64,000 nucleotides of DNA from Hydrotalea sp. (GCA_030054115.1 JASGCL010000001.1:48788-112787); one strand, 5' to 3'. Counted from the stretch's first letter, positions 2,376 through 25,619 are shown. The notes: a model not told the origin generated them from the sequence alone. Program-made: numbers and translations.

Positions 2376-2522
2376 ACGCCGTCATCAATTTGATGGGCTT
2401 GCCATAAGCTAAGCCATCGTTTGCATCGTCGCCAATGGTGCATGAAACCAGACCAAAACCTAGACCAACCCTAGACAAGGGCTTTTACCCCCCGCTAACA
2501 TTCATCAAAATTCTAAACTTCA

Positions 2523-2894: not shown

Positions 2895-2924
2895 ATAACT
2901 TTCTAACATTTTGGGGAAAGAGCT

Positions 2925-4730: not shown

Positions 4731-4768
4731 AATTTACAGCGCATCATTCATTGCCCCATTATTGAAGC

Positions 4769-5404: not shown

Positions 5405-5437
5405 TCGCCAACGATTGGTTTTTTGCTTGGCGTAAAA

Positions 5438-8209: not shown

Positions 8210-8271
8210 GTTTTAGCTATAAAACCTGGCCGCAAAAAAAGCCATCAGATTTTTAAAAACCAGCGAAGACA

Positions 8272-9666: not shown

Positions 9667-9700
9667 ATTTTTTTGCAGACTTTATGCTATAAAAAACACC

Positions 9701-10081
9701 ATGTCAATCTTTCGTGGAATCCTCAGCAACCCACTTGCCACCAGCCAGGGCATCATCCGCCGCGCCATGAAAAAAAATTTCAAATGGCCGAACGAAGCGG
9801 CGGTGTTGGAAAAATTGCAGGAGGAAATAAAGGAATTGCAGGCCGCGCTCAAAAATGGCGATAAAAAAAACCAACAGGAAGAGCTGGGCGATATTATCTT
9901 CACCGTGGTTTGCTTGAGCGAACAGATGAACCTGTCGGCGGAAAAAATCCTGGCACAGGCCAATCAAAAATTTAACCGCCGCTTTGCAAAAATGACGCGG
10001 CTTATCGCCCGCGATAAAAAATCGATGACCGCAATGTCGCCACAGCAATTGGAAGAATATTGGCAAAAAATCAAACATTAA
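9701..10081 (+). CDS. MazG-like nucleotide pyrophosphohydrolase (small all-alpha NTP-PPase)
   Basis: 126-aa product when started at the internal ATG at 9701. The ORF-track start at 9560 would overlap the divergent MATE gene. Contains the EExxE-type motif QEELGDIIFTVVCL characteristic of the MazG/NTP-PPase fold. Confidence 0.7.
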   Translation: MSIFRGILSNPLATSQGIIRRAMKKNFKWPNEAAVLEKLQEEIKELQAALKNGDKKNQQEELGDIIFTVVCLSEQMNLSAEKILAQANQKFNRRFAKMTRLIARDKKSMTAMSPQQLEEYWQKIKH

Positions 10082-10147
10082 GTTTGCTTTGCTAAACCAT
10101 AATTTTGTGGTAAAATAAGACATAAGGGGATTAGCAAATACAGCACC

Positions 10148-12334
10148 ATGCAAGCCGACCAGCTCATTTCTTCGGTTAAAAATTATAACCCGAACATCAA
10201 CGAAAAATTGTTGGCCGCGGCCTATGATTTTTCCGTCGCCGCCCATAAAAACCAAAAACGCCATTCGGGGCGCGATTATTTTGAACATCCCTTGGCGGTG
10301 GCGCAACTCCTCACCGAAAAAAAAATGGACGATGCAACCATCATCACCGCCTTGTTGCACGACACGGTCGAGGACACAACCATCAAACTATCGCAAATCA
10401 AAAAACAATTTGGCGAGGAGGTTTCGTTTTTGGTCGATGGCCTGACCAAAATTGCCCATTTGGAGGAAAGCGAACGCGAGATAAAAGATTCCGAAAATTT
10501 ACGAAAACTTTTGCTCGCCAGCATCGGCGACATCCGCGTTTTGATTGTCAAATTGGCCGACCGATTGCACAACATGCGCACCCTGGCCGGCAAACAAAAC
10601 CCCGACAGCCGCGCGCGCATCGCCGAGCAAACATTAGAAATCTACGTGCCATTGGCCGAGCGCATCGGCCTAAAACGTTGGAGCGAGGAATTGGCGTCCT
10701 TGGCCTTTAAAGAGCTCCACCCGGTGAGCTACGAATTAATCGACAAGCGGTTAAATTTTCTATACCGCGAGCAAGATGTAAACGACATCACGCGCACGCT
10801 GGAGGAATTGTTAAAGATCGAAAAGATGGAGGGGGCGATAAAATTTCGCCTCAAAGACCATTGGTCGATTTATCAAAAAATGCAAAAGAAGCAACGTCAG
10901 ATGGAGGACCTGTCCGACATCATGGCTTTTCGCATCGTTGTCAACAACACGCGCGATTGTTATTTGTGTTTGTGGTTGTTGCACGAACGTTACAAAACCA
11001 TTCCGACCAAACTGAAAGATTATATTTCCTCGCCGAAAAGCAACGGCTACCAAAGCCTGCACACCGTTATCATCGGCCCGGGCGACAAAAGGATAGAGGT
11101 GCAGATTCGCACCCACGCGATGGATGATTTTGCCGAAAATGGTTTGGCGTCTCATTGGTTATACAAACATGAAGCCAATGGTAACGGCGGCCACAACGCC
11201 GATGTTAAAAACAAATACCAACGTTATCACGATTCCGCCTTGACCTGGCTCAAGGATTTTTTTACCGCCATCGAGGAGGAAAAATCTGACCAGCTAAGTT
11301 TTTTAGACAGCAGTCGCACCTTCCTCTACACCGACCGGATTTATGTCTCCTCGCCCAAGGGTGATTTTTACGAACTGCCGATTAATTCCCTGCCGCTCGA
11401 TTTTGCCTTCGCGGTGCATAGCCGAGTCGGCGAGCAATTTTCTCACGCCCTGGTCAATGGGCGGCAGGTTTCGTTCTACACCAATTTAAAAAATGGCGAC
11501 ACGGTCGAAATTATCACCAGCGATAAAAAAATTATGCCAGAACAAAACTGGCTCCATTGGTTGAAAACGGCGCGCGCCAAAACCTTTGTGACAAAAAAAT
11601 TGAAGGAGCGGAAGGAGCAAACCTACCTCGTCCAAGGCCAAGATTTGCTGAAAACCGAATTGTTGCGCTTGGGGTTGATGACGCCCGATGAAACCAACAA
11701 CGTGACGCTCAACCTAAAAAAAGTATATAAAAAATTTGGCGTGGCCAGCGACGAGCAATTATATCGCCTTATCGCCCTGTCGCAAATCAGCGCGCGTGAG
11801 GTTTTATTCGTCCTTTACCCCGAAATGAAACGCGTCACGATTTACCGCGCCCGGCAAAAGAAAGCAAAACAATCAGCCGCCGAGATTGTCGATATTCGCC
11901 ATTTCACCAAAGATGTCTCGCTAAAATTTGCCGAATGTTGCTACCCCCTGCCCGGCGACCAAATTGCCGGCGTTATTAACTTAGGGGAAGGGCTGACCCT
12001 GCATCGCTTGGGTTGTAAAAAACTTTTACCTTTTCAACATCACCCCGACCGGATGATAGCGGTGCACTGGCAAAAAAAATCGGCGCATCAGGAAATCTTC
12101 ACCTCGCGTTTATTATTAAGTTTAAAAAATCGCCCGGGCGCGCTGAACCTGGTGACCGATGTCTTGACCAAAACCGGTAGCAACATCGCCAACGTTCTTT
12201 TTAAACTGCGCACCAAGGACCATGTTGAAATTATTTTAGACATCGAGGTATTCGGCCTGCGCCAAGTCAAAGAAATTATTGAAAAAATAAAATCAGCTGG
12301 TAAAGAAATGGTGCTTGAGATAAAACGCGCTTAA
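10148..12334 (+). CDS. spoT: Bifunctional (p)ppGpp synthetase/hydrolase (Rel/SpoT homolog)
   Basis: 728 aa with N-terminal HD hydrolase domain (HDTVEDT), synthetase domain, TGS and ACT-like C-terminal domains. Confidence 0.95.
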   Translation: MQADQLISSVKNYNPNINEKLLAAAYDFSVAAHKNQKRHSGRDYFEHPLAVAQLLTEKKMDDATIITALLHDTVEDTTIKLSQIKKQFGEEVSFLVDGLTKIAHLEESEREIKDSENLRKLLLASIGDIRVLIVKLADRLHNMRTLAGKQNPDSRARIAEQTLEIYVPLAERIGLKRWSEELASLAFKELHPVSYELIDKRLNFLYREQDVNDITRTLEELLKIEKMEGAIKFRLKDHWSIYQKMQKKQRQMEDLSDIMAFRIVVNNTRDCYLCLWLLHERYKTIPTKLKDYISSPKSNGYQSLHTVIIGPGDKRIEVQIRTHAMDDFAENGLASHWLYKHEANGNGGHNADVKNKYQRYHDSALTWLKDFFTAIEEEKSDQLSFLDSSRTFLYTDRIYVSSPKGDFYELPINSLPLDFAFAVHSRVGEQFSHALVNGRQVSFYTNLKNGDTVEIITSDKKIMPEQNWLHWLKTARAKTFVTKKLKERKEQTYLVQGQDLLKTELLRLGLMTPDETNNVTLNLKKVYKKFGVASDEQLYRLIALSQISAREVLFVLYPEMKRVTIYRARQKKAKQSAAEIVDIRHFTKDVSLKFAECCYPLPGDQIAGVINLGEGLTLHRLGCKKLLPFQHHPDRMIAVHWQKKSAHQEIFTSRLLLSLKNRPGALNLVTDVLTKTGSNIANVLFKLRTKDHVEIILDIEVFGLRQVKEIIEKIKSAGKEMVLEIKRA

Positions 12335-12360
12335 AGAAAATTTAAAACACCTCTTATACC

Positions 12361-12828
12361 TTGCCCCATTTTATGTCGAATAAATTTCTTGTCGCGCTTG
12401 CCAAAAATACCGGGCAAGGCATAAAGCCCATCAGCCATATTGTCGGCACGGGAATCGACCTTGCGCAAATTTCGCGATTTGAAAAAACCTTGCAACGCTT
12501 CCCCAAACGTTTTCCCGAATATGTTTTTACCGAACGCGAACGGCGTTATTGCGACAGCAAACCAATTCGCCGCACCGCCCGTTACGCCATGTTATTCTCG
12601 GCGAAGGAAGCCTGCTCCAAAGCCCTCGGCACTGGCATGCGCCAGGGCGTGCTGTGGCAAAATATGGAGGTCGTGCATTTAATGTCGGGCCAGCCAACCA
12701 TGGTGCTTCATGGTGGGGCGTTGAAACGGGCGAGGAGCCTGATGCCAAAAAATGCGACGCCGGTGGTGCATGTTTCCCTGACCGATGAAGCCGGCCTCGC
12801 CGCCGCCTCGGTCATGCTGGGGTGGTAA
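12361..12828 (+). CDS. acpS: Holo-[acyl-carrier-protein] synthase
   Basis: Core IVGTGIDLAQISRFEK ... FSAKEACSKALGTG matches AcpS. The annotated ATG adds about 28 N-terminal residues, so the true start may be a downstream non-ATG codon. Confidence 0.8.
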   Translation: MPHFMSNKFLVALAKNTGQGIKPISHIVGTGIDLAQISRFEKTLQRFPKRFPEYVFTERERRYCDSKPIRRTARYAMLFSAKEACSKALGTGMRQGVLWQNMEVVHLMSGQPTMVLHGGALKRARSLMPKNATPVVHVSLTDEAGLAAASVMLGW

Positions 12829-12846
12829 GGGTGGCTGATAAATTTT

Positions 12847-13485
12847 TTATCTGTTCTTGCCGGGCTTCCACATGACTTCGCCCTTGCCGCCGAACCGCGG
12901 ATCGCGCGCCAAGATGCGCGACAGCACAAATAACAAATCAGACAAACGATTGAGATATTGAATGGCCAGCGGGTTGACCTCCTCCATGTCCTGCAACGCA
13001 ACCGCACTGCGCTCGGCGCGGCGCGTCACGGTGCGCGCCAAATGCGCCACGGCCGCCAAATAACCACCGCCCGGCAAAATAAAAGATTCCAGCGCGGGCA
13101 AGGCATCGTTCCATGTGTCGATAACCAATTCCAACGATTGAACTTGTTTTTCCACAATTCGCAAATCGTGGCTGGGGGCAATGGGGACAAGCGTCAATGG
13201 TTTGGCCAAATCGGCCCCCAAATCAAACATGTCATGTTGCGCCGCGGTCAGCACCGTAACCATGTTGTCGCGGGTTACCGCGCCAGCAGATTGCCCGCCG
13301 GTCGATTGCTCGACCACCTCAGCATTCGTCAACCCATTCAACAACAGGCCGATGAAACTATTGGCTTCGTCCACATCGCCGTAGGCCGCCACCCGCAAAT
13401 CATTTTTTAAACGGCGCGACCCATCGGCCAACCCCGTGGTGCCATCGTCGCCAGTTTTTGTATAAATTTTATTTAATTTAACCAT
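12847..13485 (-). CDS. PduO-type ATP:cob(I)alamin adenosyltransferase
   Basis: 212 aa. The N-terminus IYTKTGDDGTTGL ... AYGDVDEANSFIGLL is the PduO/MMAB-family signature. Confidence 0.85.
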   Translation of the reverse strand: MVKLNKIYTKTGDDGTTGLADGSRRLKNDLRVAAYGDVDEANSFIGLLLNGLTNAEVVEQSTGGQSAGAVTRDNMVTVLTAAQHDMFDLGADLAKPLTLVPIAPSHDLRIVEKQVQSLELVIDTWNDALPALESFILPGGGYLAAVAHLARTVTRRAERSAVALQDMEEVNPLAIQYLNRLSDLLFVLSRILARDPRFGGKGEVMWKPGKNR

Positions 13486-13495
13486 CTATCAATTG

Positions 13496-13699
13496 CTAAT
13501 ACAGCCGCGCCAGCAAAAACCCAGCCAAAAACATAACGATAGCAAACAATTGCGCGCCGATGCGATAACGCATCAGCATGTTATTCCAACGATAATTTAA
13601 TTCGCCGCCCATCGCCATATTGACAACGCCCAGCACCAATATCACCAACGCCATTGCCATGCCCAGCAACATAAAAATAAATGCAATCAACGATACCAT
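13496..13699 (-). CDS. Small twin-transmembrane protein (HIG1/DUF2909-like)
   Basis: 67 aa with two hydrophobic helices. This is a common small-membrane-protein architecture in alphaproteobacteria. Assigned by topology only. Confidence 0.5.
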   Translation of the reverse strand: MVSLIAFIFMLLGMAMALVILVLGVVNMAMGGELNYRWNNMLMRYRIGAQLFAIVMFLAGFLLARLY

Positions 13700-13703
13700 G
13701 GTT

Positions 13704-14915
13704 TTAAAAACTTTCCTTTAATTGTTTTTCCACCATATCCAAAAATTGTGTAGTCGTCAAATAGCGATTTGCGTCGCCGATAATCGCCGCCAAATCTTTT
13801 GTCACCTGGCCGGCCTCGATGGTGCCAACAATAATTTTTTCCAATTTGTCGGCGAATGATTGCAACGGCGCGTTGCCATCCATCTTGCCACGATAACGCA
13901 ACCCGCCGGTCCAGGCAAAAATCGACGCCACCGGATTGGTCGAGGTCTCCTTGCCCGCCTGGTAATCGCGATAATGGCGCGTCACCGTGCCGTGGGCGGC
14001 CTCGGTCTCGACCGTTTTGCCATCGGGCGATAACAACACCGATGTCATCAACCCCAGCGACCCAAAACCCGCCGCCACCATGTCGGATTGCACATCGCCG
14101 TCGTAATTTTTTAATGCCCACAAATACCCGCCGTGCCCCCAAATGGTCTGCGCCACCATGTCGTCGATGAGGCGATGTTCGTAAAAAAGCTTGGCCTTCT
14201 CGAATTCAGCCTTAAATTCTTTGTCGTAAATTTCTTGGAAGATATTTTTGAATCGGCCGTCGTATAATTTCAACACGGTGTTTTTGGTCGAAAAATAAAC
14301 CGGAATATTTTTTTGCAAACCATAGTGAAAACAGGCGCGGGCGAAAGACATAATCGAGGCGTCGCTGTTAAACATTGCCAGGCCGATGCCGGCCGAATCA
14401 AAATGCCGCACCAATTTTTTTATCGGCGCACCGCCGCCCGCCGGCACAAATTCTAACGTCAAATCGCCCGGGCCATCGGCAATAATTTCGGTCGAGCGAT
14501 ATTGGTCGCCAAAGGCATGCCGCCCGACGACTATCGGTTTATCCCAACCAACCACCAATGGTTTCACATTGTGGCAAATAATTGGTTCACGAAAAATCGT
14601 GCCGTCCAAAAAATTTCTGATGGTCGCGTTGGGCGACGGATACATTTTTTTAAGATTAAATTCCTTGACCCGCGCCTCGTCCGGCGTGATGGTGGCACAT
14701 TTGATACCAACACCATATTGCTTAATCGCCTTCGCCGCATCAACGGTGATGGCATCATCGGTTTTATCGCGGCTTTCAATCCCCAAATCAAAATATTTAA
14801 GGTCAATATCGATATAGGGTAGAATCAATTTTTCCTTTATCATCGCCCACATGACGCGCGTCATTTCGTCGCCGTCCAATTCGACCACCGGGTTGTTGAC
14901 TTTTATTTTGGGCAT
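13704..14915 (-). CDS. icd: NADP-dependent isocitrate dehydrogenase (eukaryotic-like homodimeric type)
   Basis: 403 aa. N-terminal [20 protein letters not shown] and overall length match the IDH1-like bacterial ICDH subfamily. Confidence 0.9.
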
Positions 14916-14927
14916 GGGATTACTCTA

Positions 14928-15920
14928 TCAAGAAAAAATGTTTTGCGCAACCCGCATCTCGCCCGCCGCCAGACCGCGAAAACTTTTCAATTCCTTGCTT
15001 AAGGTTATGCGTTCTTTGGCCTTATCATCCACCAACCCCAATTTATGCAACACGCCGTTTAACGCCAATTGAGAAGCCCGCTCCGCCCCATCATCAATTT
15101 TTATTGCCACGCCAAGCCCAAGATGCGGAATAACCGCGGCGTAAAATGCCTCGGCACCGGTTTTAACAAAAACCTTGCCGGGCAATGTTTCCATCACCAT
15201 CGTGCAATGGCGACCGGTGCCGGCCACGAAATAGGGGTGCGCCATCGCGGCCTGCAACAACAAATCGGCACCGGCCTGGTCATCGCCGGCGTGCGCGCCA
15301 AACCGCGCCAGGCCGCGCGCCATCGCCACCATCGGCAGGGCAAAGGTCGGGGCAGAGCAACCATCGATAGCCGGCAGTGATAATTTTACGTCGCAAAATT
15401 TTTCTATCGTCTTGGCAATCTCGATCTGCACCGCGTGCGCCGGGTCGATATAATTTTTATGGTCGGTTTTTTTTGCATGGGCCAGCATCAACATGCCGCT
15501 GTGTTTGCCGGAACAATTATTATGCAGGGGGCATGGTGCCTCGCCGCGTTTTTCCAAATTAAAACTGGTCGCATGGTCATATGGGTTATGCGACCCGCAT
15601 TCCAACGCATCCATCGTCAGGTCGATTTTTTGCAACAACGCCGCCACCCGCCGCGTGTGCGGCAATTCGCCGCTGTGCGATGCCAACAGCAAAGCGTAAT
15701 CCTCGCCCGATAGCCGCAAGGATTCGGTAACGCCCGATAACACCACCGGCAAGGCCTGAAACATTTTTAACGACGACCGCGGGTAAGAAACCTGCGTCTC
15801 ATCACCCGCCGACCACACCACCTTGCCATCGCCATCGGCAACCACCACCGCGCCACGATGCACCGATTCGACACGGCCACCGCGACATACCTCAACCAAA
15901 ACTGGATTTTCCTGTGCCAT
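14928..15920 (-). CDS. L-asparaginase II family protein (PF06089)
   Basis: 330 aa. Contains NCSGKH, identical to the conserved motif of the Rhizobium etli-type asparaginase II family, and the N-terminal SVHRG segment. Confidence 0.75.
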   Translation of the reverse strand: MAQENPVLVEVCRGGRVESVHRGAVVVADGDGKVVWSAGDETQVSYPRSSLKMFQALPVVLSGVTESLRLSGEDYALLLASHSGELPHTRRVAALLQKIDLTMDALECGSHNPYDHATSFNLEKRGEAPCPLHNNCSGKHSGMLMLAHAKKTDHKNYIDPAHAVQIEIAKTIEKFCDVKLSLPAIDGCSAPTFALPMVAMARGLARFGAHAGDDQAGADLLLQAAMAHPYFVAGTGRHCTMVMETLPGKVFVKTGAEAFYAAVIPHLGLGVAIKIDDGAERASQLALNGVLHKLGLVDDKAKERITLSKELKSFRGLAAGEMRVAQNIFS

Positions 15921-16071
15921 GTCCCATTATAACAATTGGCAATAAAAATTACAAAGCTATAGATGGACAGATGCTTACCGATGCACCCTCTCTAAATTAA
16001 CTTGACAGGCATCAGGCCAAGGGTTATAATGCCACCATTCACGACGAATCCCGTATGGGCGTTTGAATATG

Positions 16072-16101
16072 AAAAAGGCAGTCATTCGACTGCCTTTTTT
16101 T
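16072..16101. terminator. Bidirectional rho-independent terminator
   Basis: gaaaaaGGCAGTCattcGACTGCCttttttt: 7-bp GC-rich stem, 4-nt loop, with an A-run upstream and a T-run downstream. Sits between the asparaginase-II gene and the AT-rich TA islet. Confidence 0.6.
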
Positions 16102-16211
16102 ATGATGCTTAGGGTAATATCTGTCGACAAAAATTACAAAGAATATTACCCGTAAGGACAACTAGCGATATAGATTTCTATAAATATCTATGTTAAGATA
16201 TGGCATAATTT

Positions 16212-16787
16212 GTGCAACAAGCAACGAGTGGTAGTAATATGCAAAATAAAAAAATTTATAGCGTAATTTTTTACATAATAAAAACGTGCCAAGATAAAAA
16301 CTATAAGCTTGGCGCAGTTCGACTCAATAAAATTATTTGGAATTCCGATATTTCTTATCTTAAAGAAAATGGGCGCACAATCACGGAAGAAAAATATGCC
16401 AAGCGCCAATATGGCCCAGTGGTGTTCTCTATGCCTTCTTATATTCGAGAGTTGACACTAAACGGATATATAGACTTTGCTAATAAAATTAGCAATTATG
16501 GAGAAAATGAATATAAAATGACTCTGTACTCTGTCAAAAATAATTTTACAGTAAGCTTATCGAGTAATGAGAAACAAATTATAGATAATTTTATAAATAA
16601 AATATGCAATCAAACTGCTCAAGAAGCAAGTGACGATACTCATGATAATGTCTATGAGCTTACTCCCGATGGTGAAGAAATGCCGTTGGGAGCTTATCTA
16701 TTTGCTGAACCTGCGCCTATAGATGAAAAAGATATAACAGAAGCAAAAAGAACTATTGAACAACTTTCTATAAAATCTAATGCCTAG
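16212..16787 (+). CDS. Panacea (DUF4065)-domain protein, putative type II antitoxin (PanA/SocA-like)
   Basis: 191 aa, AT-rich codon usage. The segment LGAVRLNKIIWNSDISYLKENGRTITEEKYAKRQYGPV resembles the Panacea-domain core (KLxKLLYxAD ... GPV). Its stop overlaps the next ORF by 8 nt. Confidence 0.5.
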   Translation: MQQATSGSNMQNKKIYSVIFYIIKTCQDKNYKLGAVRLNKIIWNSDISYLKENGRTITEEKYAKRQYGPVVFSMPSYIRELTLNGYIDFANKISNYGENEYKMTLYSVKNNFTVSLSSNEKQIIDNFINKICNQTAQEASDDTHDNVYELTPDGEEMPLGAYLFAEPAPIDEKDITEAKRTIEQLSIKSNA

Positions 16788-17064
16788 ATATAAAGTAGAA
16801 TTGTCAGAAAATGCAAAATCTCAATATAATGAGATGCAGCAAGATACTGACCTTCTAAAATTTTTCAATCTCTTGATAGAAAAATTATTGGTGATGCCAA
16901 CTGACGGCGCAACGCCTCTCCGAGCGAATGGAATTCCATATTTCTTATACAAAACTAACCCAAAAATTTGTAAGATAAGTATATTATTTCATGTAGATAA
17001 TAGTAAAAATATTGTGATAATTGAAAACGTTTCTACATACGACGAAAGCCAAGTAGCTTTTTAA
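16780..17064 (+). CDS. RelE/ParE-superfamily-like toxin
   Basis: 94 aa. The N-terminus YKVELSENAKSQYNEM and C-terminal I.ILFHVDNSKNIVIIENV resemble the ParE/RelE pattern (YkIefs.kA.kdl.kl ... yRiiY.id.....i.ilri). It is translationally coupled to the upstream Panacea ORF. Confidence 0.45.
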   Translation: MPRYKVELSENAKSQYNEMQQDTDLLKFFNLLIEKLLVMPTDGATPLRANGIPYFLYKTNPKICKISILFHVDNSKNIVIIENVSTYDESQVAF

Positions 17065-17065
17065 T

Positions 17066-17974
17066 TTATTCATCCGCCACCAATTTGGCGGGGTAGCCAG
17101 GCGCGCGCAGGTCGGTTTTTAATAAATCCTCCAGCAATTTGGCAATTTGCGTCGATTGTGCGTCGCCGCCATAGGCCGCCTTGCCGCTTAAAAAAGTTGG
17201 CATCAGGGCGGAGGCCAAGGTCAGGGGCACGCCAAATTCGCGGCCAAAGCCCAAGGCAAAACCCAAATCCTTTAACGTCAAGTCCATCGTGAAATCGATG
17301 TCGTAGCTACCATTTAAAATCAGCGCGCCCTCGGTCTCATGCACGAAACTATTGCCCGAGCTCGCCTTGATGGCTTCGTAGGCCGTGCCCAGGTCAAGCC
17401 CGCCGCGTTTTGCCAGCATCAGGGCCTCGCTACAGCCGACCAAATTGATGAAGGCCAACATGTTGGTGATGACCTTGATAATTGCCGCCGCACCAACCGG
17501 CCCCATGAAAAAAACCCGCGAGCCGATAAGGCGCAGGGCCTGCTCGTGCTTTTCAAACAGCGATTTATCACCGCCAACCAACACCGTGACCTTGCCCACA
17601 TCGGCCAAATGCACACCGCCAGTGACAGGGCATTCCAATGTTTTCACGCCATGCTCGTCCGCCACGTTGCTCAGGCGCATGATGTTATCGCGGTCAAGCG
17701 TGCTCATTTCTATCCACACCGCGTCTTTTTTAAATGCCGGCAGCATCTCGCGCAACACCCGTTCCGACACCGCGGGCGACGGCAAGCAAGTAATAACCGC
17801 ATCGACGCCGGTGGCGGCAGAACTGGCCGAGGTTGCGGCGGTCGCGCCCTTTTTCACCAAACGCGCCACGGCGTCTTTGCTCAGGTCGAAAACCTTAACC
17901 TGCAAACCGCCGCGCACCAAACAACCCGCCATTTTTTCGCCCAAATGCCCCAGGCCAACAAAACCATATTCCAT
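17066..17974 (-). CDS. NAD(P)-dependent oxidoreductase, 3-hydroxyisobutyrate dehydrogenase family
   Basis: 302 aa. N-terminal Rossmann motif GFVGLGHLG and a 6PGDH-like C-terminal domain, typical of MmsB/GarR-like enzymes. Confidence 0.8.
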   Translation of the reverse strand: MEYGFVGLGHLGEKMAGCLVRGGLQVKVFDLSKDAVARLVKKGATAATSASSAATGVDAVITCLPSPAVSERVLREMLPAFKKDAVWIEMSTLDRDNIMRLSNVADEHGVKTLECPVTGGVHLADVGKVTVLVGGDKSLFEKHEQALRLIGSRVFFMGPVGAAAIIKVITNMLAFINLVGCSEALMLAKRGGLDLGTAYEAIKASSGNSFVHETEGALILNGSYDIDFTMDLTLKDLGFALGFGREFGVPLTLASALMPTFLSGKAAYGGDAQSTQIAKLLEDLLKTDLRAPGYPAKLVADE

Positions 17975-18115
17975 GATACTCTCCGCTTAAAAATAAAATA
18001 TAAAAAATTTAATAAAATAATCCCCACCGACAAGATAACAACATCGTTGTCAAATTGCCGGCGGGGATTTTATATCGTGAAAACCACAATATCAATCAAG
18101 CAATCAAATGCTTGA

Positions 18116-19048
18116 TTACATGCCGAGGGCGGTTTTCACCGCTGGCATGCCGGGTTGGCCGTCAAACGTAGTGACGCCCTTCATCCATTTTTCGACTTGC
18201 GCCGGGTTGGCTTTCAACCAGGCCTTCACCACGCCAGCGGCGGGTTTTTTCTCAATATCGACCATGCCAATCAATTTGCTAATTTCATCGACGTTCATCA
18301 AATAATTAGAAAAGAATTTGGCCACGTTGGGGCAGTCGGATTTATAATCCTTACGGCCAAGGGTAGTAACTTTACCCGCGGCACCCAACCATTTTTCGCC
18401 ACCGGCGAGGTATTGTGGGTTATATTTGCTCATCCAGTGTGGTTCCCACGCCAGGTAAACGATATAACCATCCATTTTTTTACCAACCTCGGACAACATG
18501 GCGTTGGTCGAGGATTCGATAACTTGGAAATCCTTATCGGCTTTGATTTCTTTCAAGAAATCAGTGACGTGTTTATTGCCAGCCGAACCGGGTTCGATGC
18601 CATAGATTTTCCCATTCAATTGCGCCTTGAATTTTGGAATATCTTGCCATTTGGTCAGACCCGCCTTGTAAGCGGCTGGGGTGGTGGCAAGGGTATAACG
18701 AACCTTGGCCATGTTGGTGCCAAGGGTGTCAAAATTGCCCTTATATTGTTTTTCCAGGTCTGCATCAGACGGCAACCAGTTGGCAAGCATGATGTCAAGG
18801 TCTTTGTTCTTTAAAGAAGCAAAGGTGACAGCGGTGCTAACTTGGGTTTGTGACGTTTGATAACCCAACGCTTGCAACATCGCGCTCGCCCAGCCGATGC
18901 TGATGGTCAAATCTGACCAGCCCGGATTGGCAAAACGCACGGTTTTGCAAACGTCTTTGTCTTTTGCCGAGGCAGGGCCAGTGGCCAAAACCGCCGTCGC
19001 AAAAACGCTCAAAGCAAATAATTTTGCTTTATTTGATAATTTTATCAT
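18116..19048 (-). CDS. Glycine betaine/proline betaine ABC transporter substrate-binding protein (OpuAC/ProX family), copy 1
   Basis: 310 aa with Sec signal peptide. The conserved OpuAC core VRFANPGWSDLTISIGWAS and LAWEPHWMSKYNPQYLAGGEKWLG are present. Confidence 0.75.
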   Translation of the reverse strand: MIKLSNKAKLFALSVFATAVLATGPASAKDKDVCKTVRFANPGWSDLTISIGWASAMLQALGYQTSQTQVSTAVTFASLKNKDLDIMLANWLPSDADLEKQYKGNFDTLGTNMAKVRYTLATTPAAYKAGLTKWQDIPKFKAQLNGKIYGIEPGSAGNKHVTDFLKEIKADKDFQVIESSTNAMLSEVGKKMDGYIVYLAWEPHWMSKYNPQYLAGGEKWLGAAGKVTTLGRKDYKSDCPNVAKFFSNYLMNVDEISKLIGMVDIEKKPAAGVVKAWLKANPAQVEKWMKGVTTFDGQPGMPAVKTALGM

Positions 19049-19200
19049 GATGTATTTCCTCCAATCATCATAATGGTTGTTGCCTCATCTTTAGGGAAGG
19101 CCGCCCCAACCTCAGTAATCCTAAAAAAGAAAGACTACTCACTATAGAACAAGTTATAAAAAACACAAGAATAAAATAAACAATAATAGTCACAAAATAC

Positions 19201-19230
19201 AAAAAAAGCGGTGGCGCGCCGTTATTTTCT
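19201..19230. terminator. Bidirectional rho-independent terminator downstream of the cysN-like gene
   Basis: aaaaaaaGCGGTGGCGCGCCGTtattttctc: a GC-rich imperfect hairpin flanked by an A-run and a T-rich run. On the minus strand it reads as a hairpin followed by TTTTTTT directly after the cysN-like stop. Confidence 0.55.
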
Positions 19231-19274
19231 CGCTTCTTTAGCCGATTCGGCGGGGCCAGCCAGGTTTTTTTAAA

Positions 19275-20699
19275 TCATTCGGCCAACACGCCGGCGGCAA
19301 CGGTGTGGTGGGTAACCGGGTCGATAAGGATAAACGACCCCAAATTGCGATTGCCGTAGTAGGACGCGGCCACAATCGGTTGTTGCGATTTTATATTGGC
19401 GGAAAAAATGCTGTTCATCGCCACGACCTTATCCCCTACCGCTCCGCTTACGGCGGCCCTGTCGGTTGCAATATTGTTCAGGTCCATCAATTCCATGTCG
19501 GATAATTTAACAAATGTTTCGCGCGTCGTGTGTTTCAAAATATATTTTGTATTGGGGTTCAACGCGTCGTTATCAAACCAACATAACATGCTGTGTTGTA
19601 AATTGGTGGTGGCTTGCGCGGGCAATGGGGCTGATGAATCTTCTTTGCCATGCGGCACCGCCAGCTTGACAATATAATTACCACGGCCGGCCTCGACCTC
19701 GCCATCGAATTGCATGGTGATGGTTTGTCCCGCCGTCGCCATATCGGTTGCCTCACCATTTTCGTTATAAATGGTTTTGATGGCAATTGTCGCCCCCGCC
19801 GGCATAACCCGCACCTGGTCACCGGTTTTAAAATGGCCGGCTTCAATCCGCCCCTGGTAACCGCGAAATTTCACCCCAACCCCCTGGCCTTCCTTCAGCA
19901 CATATTGCACCGGCAAAATACCGCCAATCTGGTTGGCCAATTTTTCACCGCCAAGCACCGATAATTTATCAAGGTAAGCCAGCAAGGGCTCGCCATCATA
20001 CCAGCCGAGGTTTTTTGATTTATCAACGATGTTATCCCCCTGCTTGGCCGATATGGGAATAATCATGGGGTTGCTTACCGCCCCTACGCCCACTTCTGCA
20101 CCATTGCCATTTTTTGGCTGGCGCAACACCCGCCAAAGTTTTTTATAAAACCCGAGGTAAGCCTCGGCGATTTTTTGATATTTTTGTTCGTCGAAAGCTA
20201 TCGCGTCCATTTTATTCACCGCGACAATAATATGTTGCACCCCCAACATCACCAACACCGCGCTGTGGCGTTTGGTTTGGATAAGCAACAATTCATCGCC
20301 GTCTTTTGTAAAATCCAACTTGGTCGGGTCGAGCAAGATAATCGCCACATCGGCGGTTGAGGCACCGGTAACCATGTTTCTGGTATAGGCCTCGTGCCCC
20401 GGGCAATCGGCCAAAATGTAACGGCGGGTTTCGGTGGTGAAGTAGCGATAGGCCACGTCGATGGTTATGCCCTGTTCTTTTTCGGCGATTAAACCATCGG
20501 TCAGGGCGGCGAAATCGGGTGCGCCGCCAGCTGAACCGGTCGTGCCATCCTCATGCAAAATTTCCAATTGGTCGCGGGTTAAAACCTTGGCGTCGAACAA
20601 CAACCGCCCGATAAGGGTGGATTTTCCATCATCGACACTGCCCGCGGTTATGACCCGCAATGTTTCCTTCATGCCCGCACCCATAGCCAATTTTTCCAC
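19275..20699 (-). CDS. cysN: Sulfate adenylyltransferase subunit 1-like GTPase (CysN family), orphan
   Basis: 474 aa. GSVDDGKSTLIGRLL, QGITIDVAYRYFTTETRRYILADCPGHEAYTRNM and VAVNKMD match CysN/NodQ GTPase motifs almost residue for residue. No cysD lies upstream. Confidence 0.8.
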   Translation of the reverse strand: MEKLAMGAGMKETLRVITAGSVDDGKSTLIGRLLFDAKVLTRDQLEILHEDGTTGSAGGAPDFAALTDGLIAEKEQGITIDVAYRYFTTETRRYILADCPGHEAYTRNMVTGASTADVAIILLDPTKLDFTKDGDELLLIQTKRHSAVLVMLGVQHIIVAVNKMDAIAFDEQKYQKIAEAYLGFYKKLWRVLRQPKNGNGAEVGVGAVSNPMIIPISAKQGDNIVDKSKNLGWYDGEPLLAYLDKLSVLGGEKLANQIGGILPVQYVLKEGQGVGVKFRGYQGRIEAGHFKTGDQVRVMPAGATIAIKTIYNENGEATDMATAGQTITMQFDGEVEAGRGNYIVKLAVPHGKEDSSAPLPAQATTNLQHSMLCWFDNDALNPNTKYILKHTTRETFVKLSDMELMDLNNIATDRAAVSGAVGDKVVAMNSIFSANIKSQQPIVAASYYGNRNLGSFILIDPVTHHTVAAGVLAE

Positions 20700-20736
20700 A
20701 AAACGCTAGACACCTATTTCATAAGTCCCCACCCCA

Positions 20737-21738
20737 CTACATCCCGATATACATGCCGAGGGCGGTTTTTACGATGGGTAATGCCGGTTTGCCGTCGAAT
20801 GTTTTAACGCCCTTTAACCACCGTTCCAGCTGAGCCGGGTGCTGTTGCAACCAATGGCGCGCCACTTGCTCGACGGGTTTTTTGTTAATGTCGACCTCGA
20901 TAATCATTTTGTTCAGCTCGCCCACGTCGAACGCTAAATTGCCAAAAAATTTGGCAAGGTTGGGGCAATCGCTGTCGTAACCTTTTCGCGCTTGGGTCAT
21001 CACCTTGCCCTCGACCCCCAACCATTTTTCGCCACCCGCCAGGTATTGCGGGTTATATTTGCTCATCCAATGGGGTTCCCACGCCAAATAAACAACATAG
21101 CCATTGATATTTTTTTCAACCGCGCTCAGCATGGCGTTGGTCGATGTTTCCACAACTTGGAAATCTTTGTCGGCATCGATGTCTTTTAAAAACTCCTGCA
21201 CATGTTTGTTGCCGGCCGATCCAGGCTCGATAACATAAATTTTTCCATTTAATTGTTTTTTAAATTTGGTGATGTCTTGCCACGTGCGCAGGCCAGCCTT
21301 GTAAGCGGTTGGCGTCGTCGCCAGGCTGTAACGTACCCTCGGCATGTTGGTGCCCAACATGACAAAATCGCCCTGGTATTTTTTTTGCAAATCCTCGCCC
21401 GCTGGCAACCAATCGCCCAATGTAACATCGATGTTGTTGCTTTTGAATCCCTCGTAAACCAGTGTTGACCCGACCGATACCTGTTTCGGCACATAACCCA
21501 TGGCGCGTAATATGGTGCTCGACCAGCCGATGCTGATGGTTAAATCGGACCAGCCCGGGTTGGCGAAGCGCACCGATTTGCAAACCTCTTTATCGCCTGA
21601 CGGGCGACGCGTTTCGTCGGCCGCATGTGATATGGTTGCGGGCAATAATAAGCCAGCGGTTATTATTGCGATTAGTATAGTTAGTGAAGTTTTTTTTGTT
21701 TTGGTTGATATTATTTTTTTGCTTGATTGTTTTATCAT
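20737..21738 (-). CDS. Glycine betaine-type ABC substrate-binding protein (OpuAC/ProX family), copy 2
   Basis: 333 aa with signal peptide. Paralog of 18116-19048 with long stretches of near-identical DNA, for example the gccacc[g/c]gc[g/c]aggtattg[t/c]gggttatatttgctcatcca region. Confidence 0.75.
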   Translation of the reverse strand: MIKQSSKKIISTKTKKTSLTILIAIITAGLLLPATISHAADETRRPSGDKEVCKSVRFANPGWSDLTISIGWSSTILRAMGYVPKQVSVGSTLVYEGFKSNNIDVTLGDWLPAGEDLQKKYQGDFVMLGTNMPRVRYSLATTPTAYKAGLRTWQDITKFKKQLNGKIYVIEPGSAGNKHVQEFLKDIDADKDFQVVETSTNAMLSAVEKNINGYVVYLAWEPHWMSKYNPQYLAGGEKWLGVEGKVMTQARKGYDSDCPNLAKFFGNLAFDVGELNKMIIEVDINKKPVEQVARHWLQQHPAQLERWLKGVKTFDGKPALPIVKTALGMYIGM

Positions 21739-22132
21739 GTCTTTCTTATTGTTTCCTATTTAAGTTACATTTTTATATTGACCAGATACCTAATTTATAC
21801 CGCCGGTCGTTTGCTACCTCGGGTATTCTCTACCCTGTCACGCTGTCCTTAATTCCCCCTTTGTTTCTTTTTGGGGGTGTCGCCTATCTATCTTGCGATT
21901 TATCACCATAGCACTATAAAGAATAAATTAATAAAACAAAACCACCACACCACCGATTGTCGTCATTGGCAAAATTTAAACACAAATGGGCGATATTAAC
22001 CACCGTATTTCTAGGCCATTTCATATTTATAAAAATACCACCGGCGCATGGTTGGCACTTGGGTTGCCGATTAATTACCCATTTGTTGCTCATTGTTGCT
22101 CACGGCGGCGAGCTGTGCTACAAACAAGGGTA

Positions 22133-22936
22133 ATGAATTTTATAAAAAAAATCGCCACCGCTTTTGTCTCCTTGCTCGGCACGATTGGCCAAACGGTTTT
22201 GGCCGTCGTTGATTCGGCGGGCGCGATATTATTGTTTTTTATGCGCGGCCTGTTGGCGGGTATTGTGCCACCCTATTACCCACGCCTGTGGTTGGCGCAA
22301 ATGGCCGAGATTGGTTTTTATTCCTTGCCGGTGGTGGGCTTAACAACGATATTCAGCGGCATGGTACTGGCGATTCAAGCCATCGGCAGTTTAAACGCCA
22401 GCCTGGCCCCGGTTGCCGTGCCCAACTTGGTGGTGTTCGCCATGATTAAGGAATTATCGCCGGTGTTGGTTGGGTTGATGGTCGCCGGCCGTATTGGTTC
22501 GGCCATTTCGGCCGAATTGGGCACTATGCGGGTCAGCGAACAAATCGACGCCTTGCACACCCTTAACACCAACGTATTTTCCTATTTGGTTTTTCCGCGA
22601 TTATTGGCGGCCATGTTGATGATGCCATTGTTGGTGTTGGTCGGCGATTTGCTCGGCATCTTCGGCGGTTACATCATGGCGGTGCAACAGGCCGGCCTGC
22701 CCAGCGACGTTTTCCTTAACAATGCCTGGGCGGCGATAACATTCAGCGGCGTGTTCGGCGGTTTGATTAAGGCCTTTGCCTTCGGCCTTATCGTTGCCCT
22801 GATGGGTTGTTACCACGGGTATCATTGCGGCGGCGGGGCCGAGGGGGTCGGCATTGCCACCACCCGCGCCGTGGTCAGCTCCTCTATCCTTATCCTTATC
22901 GCCAACTTCCTCATCACCATCTGGTGGTATCAATAA
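22133..22936 (+). CDS. mlaE: Phospholipid (Mla) ABC transporter permease MlaE
   Basis: 267 aa from the internal start MNFIKKIATAF. Multi-TM MlaE/Ttg2B-family permease. Confidence 0.85.
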   Translation: MNFIKKIATAFVSLLGTIGQTVLAVVDSAGAILLFFMRGLLAGIVPPYYPRLWLAQMAEIGFYSLPVVGLTTIFSGMVLAIQAIGSLNASLAPVAVPNLVVFAMIKELSPVLVGLMVAGRIGSAISAELGTMRVSEQIDALHTLNTNVFSYLVFPRLLAAMLMMPLLVLVGDLLGIFGGYIMAVQQAGLPSDVFLNNAWAAITFSGVFGGLIKAFAFGLIVALMGCYHGYHCGGGAEGVGIATTRAVVSSSILILIANFLITIWWYQ

Positions 22937-22955
22937 AAAATAAAAAATAAAAAAC

Positions 22956-23732
22956 ATGACCATCGCACCCATGAATAACCAAATGAATAGCCAAGAAAAA
23001 CTTATCACCGTCAACAACCTGTCGGTGGCGTTCGGCAAGAAAAAGGTTCTGCGCAACCTGTCGATTGATTTGGCGCGTGGCGAATCCTTGGCGGTTATTG
23101 GCGCGTCTGGTTCGGGGAAATCGGTGTTGTTTAAATCAATCCTTGGCCTGTTGGATGTGCGTTACAGCGGCCGCGTGTCGTTGCTGGGCATCGAACCCAC
23201 CACGGCGTCGCGCGGCAAATTGACTGAGGCCTTTAAAAAAATTGGCATGTTGTTTCAATATTCGGCGTTATTTGATTCCCTGCCCTTGTGGCAAAATGTT
23301 GCTTTCCAAGCATACCAAACAAAACAATTGTCAAAGGATGAAGCCCGCGCCCAAGCGATTGAATTGATGGAACGGGTCGGTGTGACGCGCGACAACGCAG
23401 ATTTGTTTCCGGCGGAAATTTCGGGCGGCATGAAAAAACGGGTTGGCTTGGCGCGGGCATTGTTCATGAAGCCCGAATTATTATTTATCGACGAACCGAC
23501 GGCCGGCCTTGACCCATTAATGTGCCGCGTGATTGACAATTTGGTGTTGGAAAATATTCGCGCCTATAACGCGACCGCGGTAACCATCACCCACGATTTG
23601 GACACGGTGCGCCACACCGCCAGCCGGGTTGCATTGTTGCACGAGGGGGTTATTGCCTGGCAGGGCACCCCCGCCGAAATGTTCGCCAGCCAAAACCCCA
23701 TTGTCAAATCGTTCGTTGAGGCACGGCGGTAG
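22956..23732 (+). CDS. mlaF: Phospholipid (Mla) ABC transporter ATP-binding protein MlaF
   Basis: 258 aa with Walker A GASGSGKS, the ABC signature ISGGMKKR and Walker B LLFIDEPTAGLDP. Follows mlaE by 19 nt. Confidence 0.85.
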   Translation: MTIAPMNNQMNSQEKLITVNNLSVAFGKKKVLRNLSIDLARGESLAVIGASGSGKSVLFKSILGLLDVRYSGRVSLLGIEPTTASRGKLTEAFKKIGMLFQYSALFDSLPLWQNVAFQAYQTKQLSKDEARAQAIELMERVGVTRDNADLFPAEISGGMKKRVGLARALFMKPELLFIDEPTAGLDPLMCRVIDNLVLENIRAYNATAVTITHDLDTVRHTASRVALLHEGVIAWQGTPAEMFASQNPIVKSFVEARR

Positions 23733-23780
23733 GGACGAATTAGGAAAACCATATCACTAAGGTTATTTTTCCTTGCTATA

Positions 23781-23833: not shown

Positions 23834-24637
23834 ATGAAAGAAATTAAAATGGCGCAACATCCTAAAAGACTTAAAATTTTGCCGCTGGTTGATGCCGTAT
23901 TTGAAATAAGGTTCAGGCATCCCTTTAAAGCTTATCAGGCAATCGTTGGGACTATTTATAACAATGTTGATTCAGAATATAAAAACAAAGAAATTATTAA
24001 CACCAACGAATCTGTGTTGCCAAAGCCCGTGAGGGATTCTCAGCCCCAATTCGAATACGCAATGTTAAATATAATCTCCCTAGATGGAATTTTTATTGGA
24101 GTGGGAGAGAAAGCACTTAACCTGGTTGCTAAATATCCTTATCCAGGTTGGGACGTTTTTAAGCAGAAAATTTTTAAAGTGTTAGATATTCTACAAGAGG
24201 GCACAGACGACACCTCTATAAATCGCTTCAGTTTAAAATACATTGATGTTATAGATAATAGCAGATTAATTAACCCTAGCAATCACTTGGACTCTTTAAA
24301 AATACAATTAAATATATTAGAGCAAAACTACCAAAAAGATATTTTCCATTTTATAATTACCACAAAAGATGAAAAAAATCATGCTATAAGTACTATACTT
24401 AATTTATCAGCACCAGCTGAGGTTAAAATTAATGGCGAAGCAACATATGAAGCAACCAATGGTATTAGAATTGACATAGATGTTATAAAAAATGTTGAAG
24501 AAGACCTAACCATACGCTCTCTATTAACAACAATAAAAAATCAGGACTCAGTTCTAGATGAAATGCATATAAAGGTTAAAAATTTATTCTTTAATATATT
24601 GGACGCAAAAGTAATAAAGAATCATGATCCCGAGTAA
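23834..24637 (+). CDS. Hypothetical protein, TIGR04255-like N-terminus
   Basis: 267 aa, strongly AT-rich codons. N-terminal LPLVDAVFEIRF resembles the conserved start of TIGR04255-family proteins. No catalytic motif recognised. Confidence 0.55.
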   Translation: MKEIKMAQHPKRLKILPLVDAVFEIRFRHPFKAYQAIVGTIYNNVDSEYKNKEIINTNESVLPKPVRDSQPQFEYAMLNIISLDGIFIGVGEKALNLVAKYPYPGWDVFKQKIFKVLDILQEGTDDTSINRFSLKYIDVIDNSRLINPSNHLDSLKIQLNILEQNYQKDIFHFIITTKDEKNHAISTILNLSAPAEVKINGEATYEATNGIRIDIDVIKNVEEDLTIRSLLTTIKNQDSVLDEMHIKVKNLFFNILDAKVIKNHDPE

Positions 24638-24646
24638 GTTTTAAAA

Positions 24647-25204
24647 ATGACATACGCTTTGCCCCTGCCCCTGTCTTCTTTCAATAATTTGGAGAAGTCT
24701 GCTACGCCATTAAATTTATTTAATGGTCTAAAACAATCGGAGAGATTTAATTACATTTCACGCCAATCTGGCCGTCAAATGAGTATTATCAAATCTATTT
24801 TAAATATAGATGATAACAACTCATATTATAACGCTAATATTAAATTTGAAATAGAAAAAAAGATTGCACAAGCTATTCAGAGGACACGAGAAGAGGATGA
24901 AAAAATCAGACCAAATGCAACATCCCAAACGAACCTGTTGGCATTTCTTTCTACTGGTAATTTTGATTTGCCATCAGTTTTTTTACTTGAAAATGGTGTA
25001 TTCCAAATAGTTTGGTCTAAAGGGGCGGGAGAAAGAATAGAAGTTCAATTTCTAGAAGATGGCTTCATAGAGCTAGCGGCGATTATTAAAGAAGGAAATA
25101 AAAATGTTCCTAGATATTTTGTATATCAAGAGAAAGAAAACGTTATTAGACAAATTAAAAATGATAGATTAGACAGAATCATCAATGAAAAAAAACATAC
25201 CTGA
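24647..25204 (+). CDS. Hypothetical protein (orphan ORF 2 of the cassette)
   Basis: 185 aa. Begins 10 nt after ORF1 on the same strand with AT-rich composition. No recognisable domain. Confidence 0.5.
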   Translation: MTYALPLPLSSFNNLEKSATPLNLFNGLKQSERFNYISRQSGRQMSIIKSILNIDDNNSYYNANIKFEIEKKIAQAIQRTREEDEKIRPNATSQTNLLAFLSTGNFDLPSVFLLENGVFQIVWSKGAGERIEVQFLEDGFIELAAIIKEGNKNVPRYFVYQEKENVIRQIKNDRLDRIINEKKHT

Positions 25205-25619
25205 TAATGATAATGTGCTTCGTCATATTAAAGGCTCTTGGCTAGATGCTGAGAAAAATACTGTTACGTCTGAGGCGTTTATGCTAAGAGAGCACGAACA
25301 AGGTATATCTGTAAACTGGCTAGAGCATGATATAATCAAATATCCGAATACAAAATCTCAGATTAATTTTATCAGAGGTTCTATCAATCTAGAATTAAAA
25401 AAAAGCCATCGTTTTCTAAAATTGAATGTTGGTAAAACCAAAAATATAATAAAAGAAAAAATAAAAAAAACTATTATTATAGAACACCAACCGAATAAGC
25501 ATGATAATTCTCATTCTTGCATTGCTATAGAAAAAAATAAAATTATTAATAAGTTAATAGCGCTATGCATTGTAGAAGAATTTGGGAAAAAGGATAATCT
25601 TATCGATGCCGCATCCTAA
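25185..25619 (+). CDS. Hypothetical protein (orphan ORF 3 of the cassette)
   Basis: 144 aa, overlaps ORF2 by 20 nt, very Lys/Ile/Asn-rich. The N-terminal HIKGSWLD ... ISVNWLEH block has no confident family assignment. Confidence 0.5.
   Translation: MKKNIPDNDNVLRHIKGSWLDAEKNTVTSEAFMLREHEQGISVNWLEHDIIKYPNTKSQINFIRGSINLELKKSHRFLKLNVGKTKNIIKEKIKKTIIIEHQPNKHDNSHSCIAIEKNKIINKLIALCIVEEFGKKDNLIDAAS

Follow-up and report, generated by a model that had tools for sequence, protein, structure and literature searches.

A cysN gene between two ChoX-like binding-protein genes is probably the 3' half of a divided sulfate-assimilation operon

The genes cysD and cysN are usually adjacent. A stretch of 64,000 nucleotides labelled Hydrotalea sp. 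(GCA_030054115.1 JASGCL010000001.1:48788-112787; the whole stretch is called the window here) has, between positions 18,116 and 21,738, a gene for a CysN-like GTPase that lies between two genes for OpuAC-type substrate-binding proteins (SBPs) and has no cysD on either side. What does this GTPase do, how did it come to be there, and can the two flanking genes rearrange the locus? The original prediction offered a decayed or rearranged cys locus, or a regulatory GTPase used outside sulfate activation, and regarded the flanking genes as recombination-prone direct repeats. Comparison with related genomes indicates that, with good probability, a rearrangement divided a lineage-specific sulfate-assimilation operon and that the locus is its 3' half, cut off from the 5' half. 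The elements on which the argument rests are as follows, in window coordinates.

SBP2: 20737-21738, minus strand; gene of a ChoX-like (OpuAC-fold) binding protein of 333 amino acids, a diverged extra copy upstream of cysN.
cysN: 19275-20699, minus strand; the longest open reading frame (ORF) has 474 amino acids and a GTG start, and the probable start is the ATG at 20672, giving 465 amino acids.
SBP1: 18116-19048, minus strand; gene of a ChoX-like binding protein of 310 amino acids, the positional ortholog of the SBP gene found beside the HIBADH-like gene in the clade.
Beta-hydroxyacid dehydrogenase gene, HIBADH family: 17066-17974, minus strand; PF03446 and PF14833, the downstream neighbour of the SBP gene in every clade member.
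mlaE and mlaF: 22133-23732, plus strand; PF02405 MlaE (E 4e-74) and ABC_tran, divergent from SBP2.
Segment present here and absent from L072, a related metagenome scaffold: 20713-22100, no strand; about 1.39 kb, consisting of SBP2 and about 360 bp of upstream DNA.

The GTPase gene and both SBP genes were found on the minus strand with the boundaries originally predicted. A tblastn search of the entire 64-kb window with the cys proteins of a relative detected no cysD, cysH, cysI or cysG; the matches were limited to cysN, both SBP genes and the HIBADH-like dehydrogenase gene. The lack of cysD, predicted for the flanks of the GTPase gene, thus extends over the whole window.

The relatives of this locus are uncultured, small-genome Alphaproteobacteria known from metagenome-assembled genomes (MAGs), one of them represented by a closed chromosome of 1.63 Mb (OZ241918.1, here L001/L005). 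In this chromosome and in L004 the gene order is hom / pyr_redox-fer2-cysG-DUF2849-cysI-DUF934-cysH-cysD-FkbM methyltransferase-cysN-SBP-SBP-HIBADH-like. L006 has the same cys order without the methyltransferase and with a single SBP gene, L003 has it from DUF2849 through cysN and then a truncated ORF, and in L002 the cysN-SBP-dehydrogenase part is visible. The FkbM-family methyltransferase (TIGR01444), situated between cysD and cysN at 9148-9996 in L001 and 5162-6007 in L004, is missing from that place in L006 and L003. The 3' part of the L001-type operon is retained in the window in the order cysN-SBP-HIBADH-like, with identities to L001 of 56% for CysN, 70% for SBP1 (compared with SBPb of L001) and 86% for the dehydrogenase. 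However, cysG through cysH, cysD and, where present, the methyltransferase directly precede cysN in L001, L004 and L006, whereas here this 5' half is elsewhere. The relatives with two SBP genes have them in tandem downstream of cysN, whereas in the window one copy is upstream. Judged from these gene orders, an SBP gene and a dehydrogenase gene downstream of cysN are a conserved feature of the clade, and the window carries the 3' half of the operon.

The 5' half was located on a different contig. A CysD protein (P0256) corresponds to MDI9313774.1, "sulfate adenylyltransferase subunit CysD [Hydrotalea sp.]", which is encoded on a 41-kb contig, as identified through the 90% cluster members. It bears the same "[Hydrotalea sp.]" MAG label as the proteins of the window (MDI9313104-MDI9313155), among which CysN is 100% identical to the NCBI protein of the MAG so labelled. 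The Logan contig that encodes P0256, L088, comes from run SRR23378604, which is also the source of contigs matching window positions 2119-14694 and 14665-23734 at 100%. L088 reads hom-pyr_redox-fer2-cysG-DUF2849-cysI-DUF934-cysH-cysD, followed by the start of a methyltransferase gene (TIGR01444, 9280-10047) and then by the contig end. The GC content is 49.3%, as compared with 48.4% for the window, and the pyr_redox, cysI and cysD products are 81-85% identical to those of L001, comparable to the 86% of the window dehydrogenase. The L088 CysD passes the NCBIfam equivalog NF009214 (421.6 versus a cutoff of 413), and its CysH matches phosphoadenylyl-sulfate/adenosine 5'-phosphosulfate (APS) reductase models. 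A genome-wide search for cysD and cysH had been recommended in the original prediction, and both genes were found intact outside the window, in sequence that shares its run and its MAG label. Because L088 and the window hold complementary, non-overlapping halves of the ancestral operon, it is concluded that the operon appears to have been split between the methyltransferase gene and cysN in the organism from which the window derives. The proposal of a rearranged cys locus therefore holds: the relatives carry one block, and here the half from hom through cysH, cysD and the methyltransferase is on another contig. Neither the three spacers of the locus nor 20713-22100 gave more than noise when searched for traces of cysD, the methyltransferase gene and other cys genes.

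The rearrangement is not recent. The closest relative of the window CysN is P0002, encoded on scaffold L072 (69% identical by BLASTP, 74% over aligned codons). In L072, mlaE is divergent from cysN at a distance of 86 bp with no SBP gene between them, and its mlaE is 88-89% identical to that of the window (BLAST). According to blastn and tblastx, L072 1-616 corresponds to window 22728-22113 and L072 658-1964 to window 20709-19313. The two are thus homologous down to about 22100 next to mlaE and again from about 20713, a position roughly 25 bp beyond the SBP2 stop codon. The alignments indicate that the mlaE-cysN breakpoint is old and common to both sequences.

A further state is seen in L074, which is syntenic with the window over genes for the SBP, the dehydrogenase, asparaginase II, IDH, cobalamin adenosyltransferase, ACPS and SpoT. 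Its SBP is 88% identical to SBP1 and its dehydrogenase 91% identical to that of the window, and the nucleotide alignment from window position 19184 downward has 82% identity. Neither cysN nor a remnant of it was found beside the SBP gene of L074, where the alignment reaches no further than 135 bp upstream of the start codon. As L074 keeps the pair without cysN, the SBP-dehydrogenase pair behaves, on the evidence of synteny, as a stable unit whose linkage to cys genes varies. Beyond the dehydrogenase gene, L001 (15970-21362) and L002 (4937-9367) have atpI and a gene for a giant cadherin-repeat protein of more than 2800 amino acids. The window has asparaginase II and IDH genes in that position, so that synteny is interrupted a second time, at the opposite end of the module.

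The GTPase itself is a member of the CysN family, as originally predicted. It scores 375.8 bits with TIGR02034 (cutoff 336.1), above the EF-1alpha, SelB and EF-Tu models, the EF-1alpha models giving 189-200 bits. PF00009 and PF22594 are present, as are domains II and III of the translational-GTPase fold, and the protein aligns over its full length with 1ZUN_B, the CysN chain of a solved CysD-CysN structure (E 3e-78). Motifs G1 to G5 are intact (GSVDDGKST, GITID, DCPGHE, NKMD and SAKQGDN), and the G1, G3 and G4 motifs are common to the window CysN and its cysD-linked orthologs. The N-terminus MKETLRV, conserved in all relatives, places the start at the ATG at 20672, matching the 465-residue NCBI call.

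The rates of substitution are those of a gene under continued constraint. Between the window and L072, cysN has 0.196 nonsynonymous substitutions per site (dN) and 1.16 synonymous substitutions per site (dS), that is, a dN/dS of 0.169. The cysD-linked pairs give 0.135 (L001/L004), 0.175 (L001/L006) and 0.21 (L004/L006). As dN to the outgroup L003 is alike in every lineage (0.45-0.47), cysN shows no acceleration after the split. The clade-specific residues and loop insertions, including DCPGHE, are common to unlinked and cysD-linked copies. The protein-search matches included no further clade-type cysN from the MAG or run of the window, and a scan of genome contigs with the window CysN gave 100 pattern matches with no relative among them. 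Since an intact cysD-cysH-cysI set accompanies a single, constrained cysN, CysN would still form the ATP sulfurylase heterodimer with CysD, the two being expressed from separate loci.

The two SBP genes were originally described as near-duplicates flanking the GTPase gene. That they are paralogs is borne out by 66% protein identity over 281 residues (BLASTP, E 3e-148); near-identity in DNA is not, as blastn gives 71.7% over 854 nt and an in-register comparison 67% over 933 nt. Gapless blocks are 71-82% identical, the longest exact run is 20 nt and occurs three times, and the flanks of the two genes show 23-26% identity, i.e. random. The copies are separated by 1.69 kb, with a start-to-start distance of 2633 nt. 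RecA-mediated exchange requires about 25-30 nt of perfect identity as a minimum and drops steeply with divergence. With no exact run longer than 20 nt and a DNA identity of about 72%, the copies are predicted to be poor recombination substrates, and the notion of recombination-prone direct repeats is not supported. A dS of 1.47 (near saturation) and a dN/dS of 0.20 indicate that both copies are old and both are under purifying selection.

Among 5.8 billion database proteins, none is closer to SBP2 than SBP1, which is encoded in the same genome. A neighbour-joining tree pairs SBP1 with the L074 protein at 100% support and places SBP2 outside this pair; the tandem pair of L001 and L004 arises in the same tree from a separate duplication (74% support). 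A recent in-place duplication as the origin of SBP2 was rejected on account of the dS of 1.47 and the position outside the SBP1-L074 pair. Acquisition from a distant donor was not supported, the best database match being SBP1.

Both SBPs match the profile of the OpuAC class II SBP domain, PF04069, over its full length (E 1e-40 for SBP1 and 4e-39 for SBP2), and the best solved-structure match of SBP1 is the choline/acetylcholine-binding protein ChoX from the ChoXWV transporter of Sinorhizobium meliloti (2REG, E 5e-61). The ChoX residues critical for ligand binding are W43, W90, Y119 and W205 (PMC4125059). D45 and these four cage residues do not vary among SBP1, SBP2 and 10 relatives from the clade. 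The N-termini, read by eye, resemble Sec signals, with a basic n-region and a hydrophobic core, followed by ASA/KD in SBP1 and SHA/AD in SBP2. Both proteins would thus be periplasmic receptors of a quaternary-ammonium-type ligand, the tail of which may differ from that of choline.

The window has no permease or ATPase genes that would serve these SBPs, in agreement with the original prediction. Its only such pair is mlaE/mlaF, of a lipid-transport family. Mla is a lipid-trafficking system and is not known to use OpuAC-type binding proteins. The loci of the relatives likewise lack permease and ATPase genes beside the SBP gene. By analogy with known systems of this SBP family, in which a missing neighbouring permease is a familiar pattern, the SBPs are probably "orphans" that serve a permease encoded elsewhere. 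In P. aeruginosa, caiX belongs to the catabolic operon caiX-cdhCAB-hocS, and its product depends on the core transporter CbcWV of the separate cbcXWV locus (PMC5806209). CaiX can be likened to the window SBPs in fold and gene arrangement only: the gene of a same-fold SBP lies beside metabolic genes, away from those of the permease and ATPase. The Pseudomonas Cbc system differs in that CaiX has a known core, CbcWV, whereas the permease of the window SBPs is only putative. BetX is reportedly another orphan SBP that docks on CbcWV, in work attributed to Chen et al. in 2010. Elsewhere in the window, 56428-58926 (plus strand) encodes an 832-residue protein with DAO, FAO_M, GCV_T and GCV_T_C domains, the architecture of dimethylglycine/sarcosine dehydrogenase. 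This gene suggests methylated-amine catabolism in an organism with orphan ChoX-like SBPs.

The spacers between the genes bear on how the locus might be transcribed.

SBP2-cysN spacer: 20673-20736, minus strand; 64 bp.
cysN-SBP1 spacer: 19049-19274, minus strand; 226 bp, with a hairpin and U7 after the cysN stop codon and the conserved SBP1 leader at 19049-19184.
SBP1-dehydrogenase spacer: 17975-18115, minus strand; 141 bp, with three strong hairpins.

A terminator scan found no terminator-like structure on the minus strand of the SBP2-cysN spacer, the fold of which is weak (-12.2 kcal/mol, z -0.57). As the two genes are only 64 bp apart with no such structure between them, a common transcript of SBP2 and cysN, starting in the 394-bp mlaE-SBP2 spacer, is probable. 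The hairpin and U7 following cysN are modest, and this fold is not significant against shuffles. The 135 bp upstream of SBP1 (19049-19184) are conserved with L074 and include a TATAGT-like element, which is also present ahead of the SBP genes of the relatives. The conserved 5' leader of the SBP genes has the form ...TTGAGGTTGGG...GAGGCAATAAC...ATTATGATGA... (window 19049-19150, L074 9899-10000, and upstream of the SBP genes of L001 and L004). A mini-ORF of eight codons, ATGATGATTGGAGGAAATACATCATGA, forms part of it in the window and L074, with a stop codon that overlaps the start of SBP1. Joint folding of the leaders gave no consensus RNA structure, Rfam at gathering thresholds had no match in the window and four loci, and promoter and terminator scans performed no better than on shuffles. 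The SBP1-dehydrogenase spacer folds with -54.9 kcal/mol (z -8.3, none of 200 shuffles being as good), and its last hairpin has a long GC stem and a U-rich tail; it looks like an intrinsic terminator cluster. SBP1 and the dehydrogenase gene thus appear to be separate transcription units, in a module independent of sulfate activation.

The following course of events would connect these observations. A break immediately upstream of cysN would have left the half running from hom to cysD and the methyltransferase gene elsewhere in the genome. The cysN-SBP1-dehydrogenase part would have come to abut mlaE in divergent orientation. The former 86-bp mlaE-cysN spacer would now contain the old paralog SBP2 together with the roughly 360 bp that precede it, and cysN would be transcribed with SBP2 from the mlaE-SBP2 spacer. 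From what is known of the family, CysN would be the GTPase subunit of an ATP sulfurylase whose CysD is encoded at an unlinked site. GTP hydrolysis would drive the formation of APS, which would then be reduced by CysH and CysI, encoded together with cysD. The secreted SBPs would bind a quaternary-ammonium-type ligand in their aromatic cage and pass it to an ATP-binding cassette (ABC) permease encoded elsewhere, much as CaiX does with CbcWV.

The association of cys and SBP genes might instead be functional, with the SBPs binding an organosulfur onium compound such as choline-O-sulfate or dimethylsulfoniopropionate (DMSP) that feeds sulfur assimilation, and SBP2 and cysN being co-regulated. In each of the five sequenced lineages with this junction, the gene right after cysN encodes a ChoX-like SBP, the SBP has been duplicated independently at least twice (L001a/b and the window), and SBP2 and cysN are separated by 64 bp without a terminator. 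Serine followed by A, G or S replaces N156/D157 of ChoX throughout the clade while the cage is retained, and sulfonium compounds can be ligands of OpuAC-fold proteins, DmpX being one that binds DMSP (PMC10030565). However, the DmpX pocket is built otherwise, from four tryptophans and Tyr200 (PMC10030565), and no sulfatase or DMSP-catabolic gene occurs at any locus examined. L074 has kept the SBP-dehydrogenase pair and the conserved leader without cysN, and the cysN of L072 has no SBP gene upstream. The cysN-SBP spacers are also long, measuring 226 bp here and 325-371 bp in L001, and hold a conserved promoter-like element for SBP1, which seems to have a promoter and a terminator of its own. A functional link is therefore considered unlikely. 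Slightly less likely still is the more specific possibility that ChoX-like SBPs with S-[A/G/S] at 156/157 constitute a previously undescribed subfamily of organosulfur-onium receptors within a sulfate-assimilation regulon, SBP2-cysN being a newly built co-transcribed pair; if that were true, the SBP2-cysN unit would link organosulfur uptake to sulfate activation.

The remaining explanations concern the state of cysN and of the assembly. The small genomes of the relatives (1.63 Mb), the variable cys content beside their SBP genes and the lack of cysN at this position in L074 would fit a relic, left over while sulfate assimilation is being lost from a reduced genome. Against this stand an intact cysN ORF with all GTPase motifs, purifying selection (dN/dS 0.17) across a dS of about 1.2 since the common breakpoint, and intact cysG, cysI, cysH and cysD genes in the same run. 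Decay, the other half of the first alternative in the original prediction, is thus very improbable. A GTPase recruited to a CysD-independent role, for instance a regulatory one together with the binding proteins, would explain why cysN stands apart from cysD and has remained apart in two lineages, as well as its score below the CysN equivalog cutoff and its extra loops. Yet its dN/dS and outgroup distances equal those of the cysD-linked orthologs, in which all the clade-specific features, DCPGHE among them, are also found; it is the only cysN detected, and intact cysD, cysH and cysI need one. Moreover, the SBPs would be periplasmic and the GTPase cytoplasmic. A function outside sulfate activation accordingly has even less in its favour than decay. 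A chimeric join of an mla region with a cys fragment, or another error of assembly or binning, might be suspected from the occurrence of the contig in a MAG labelled as Hydrotalea (Bacteroidota) when all its relatives are alphaproteobacterial. The mlaE-SBP2-cysN-SBP1 arrangement is not chimeric, however, because the independent Logan assembly reproduces 14665-23734 at 100%, and the same mlaE-cysN junction occurs in L072, a scaffold from an unrelated metagenome. An artefact is hardly credible as an account of the locus.

Several observations weigh against a split operon with an otherwise conventional CysN and ChoX-like SBPs. That L088 and the window belong to one organism follows from the run, the MAG label, the GC content and phylogenetic affinity, not from physical linkage, and the 41-kb contig could conceivably carry a second, very divergent cysN beyond the methyltransferase gene. 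The informative genes of the window have relatives in alphaproteobacterial MAGs, with Rhizobiaceae next in the case of the dehydrogenase, and the matches of CysN and CysD beyond the clade are betaproteobacterial. At least two contigs of alphaproteobacterial type (152 kb and 41 kb) occur in the Hydrotalea sp. (Bacteroidota) MAG, which is probably mislabelled or mixed, so that its binning and taxonomy are questionable. The window CysN falls below the stricter NCBIfam equivalog NF003478 (388 versus 590) and lacks the adjacency to cysD that is typical of CysN, though not strictly defining. The segment of about 1.39 kb with SBP2 is either an insertion here or a deletion in L072, the deeper placement of SBP2 in the tree being weak (61-68% support). 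With the choline-SBP model TIGR03414, SBP1 scores 277.3 and SBP2 264.9 bits, below the cutoff of 379.05. The ChoX residues N156/D157 are replaced by S/A in the window SBPs and by S-[A/G/S] clade-wide; Oswald et al. reportedly described, in 2008, how this residue pair contributes to choline binding. The window and the loci of the relatives yielded no choW/choV-type permease, the genome being otherwise unsearched.

Compared with P. syringae CysN (1ZUN chain B) and E. coli cysDNC, the window CysN is likewise a three-domain, EF-Tu-like GTPase, and the organism also encodes a bona fide CysD. Unlike those systems, cysN is on a different contig from cysD, behind an SBP gene and facing mlaE, and the protein has DCPGHE for DTPGHE, several loop insertions and no fused APS-kinase (CysC) domain. 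The SBPs share the four cage residues, D45 and a signal-peptide-like N-terminus with ChoX of ChoXWV (2REG) but differ in being encoded without choW/choV, in having S/A for N156/D157 and in scoring below the TIGR03414 cutoff. The locus holds an ordinary CysN gene and two ordinary ChoX-like paralogs in a rearranged order. What looked like an orphan CysN between unstable repeats would be the normal ATP-sulfurylase GTPase of a split operon, with repeats too diverged to matter. The locus would then be a natural case of cysD and cysN being unlinked under purifying selection through a dS of about 1, and adjacency would therefore not be required for the heterodimer. It also defines a clade-specific module of a ChoX-like SBP and a beta-hydroxyacid dehydrogenase next to cys genes.

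The dehydrogenase of this module is 86-91% identical to those of L001, L004 and L074 and scores below the cutoff of every NCBIfam equivalog. A scan of metagenome contigs with the dehydrogenase alignment recovered only Rhizobium-like homologs, at about 62% identity, and no clade members. The neighbourhoods of the homologs in Rhizobiaceae that are about 60% identical contain no SBP or cys genes. One such locus has a LysR gene followed by genes for an aldehyde dehydrogenase, an enolase-superfamily protein and a GMC oxidoreductase, and is uninformative on the substrate. On the other side of the locus, the longest mlaE ORF starts at 21986 and has 316 codons. It is probably over-extended, since the L072 alignment and the MlaE profiles begin near the ATG at 22133, which would give an N-terminus MNFIKK and a protein of about 267 residues.

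The rest of the window is ordinary chromosome, with genes for YidC, AlaRS, SpoT, PntAB, chorismate synthase, SDH, GlnA, LysRS, GatAB and SecA, interrupted by small low-GC islands. Between the dehydrogenase and asparaginase II genes, 16212-17064 (plus strand) holds a SocA/Panacea-domain antitoxin-like gene (PF13274) and an overlapping ORF of 94 amino acids, for which PADLOC gave no match. L074 has a restriction-modification pair (RE_EcoO109I and an N6_N4 methylase) at the same spot, 12027-13636. This interval appears to be a minor hot spot at which defence or toxin-antitoxin cassettes integrate. A low-GC (34%) trio of ORFs of 267, 185 and 144 amino acids follows mlaF at 23834-25619 (plus strand), where mlaD would be expected. 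The trio matches no Pfam family and has only faint PADLOC matches (PDC-M32A, E 0.0016; AbiEii, E 1.4e-4). Another low-GC island (33%), at 38164-39912 on the plus strand, encodes a GmrSD-type type IV restriction enzyme (PF03235 and PF07510; PADLOC HEC-06, E 1e-162).

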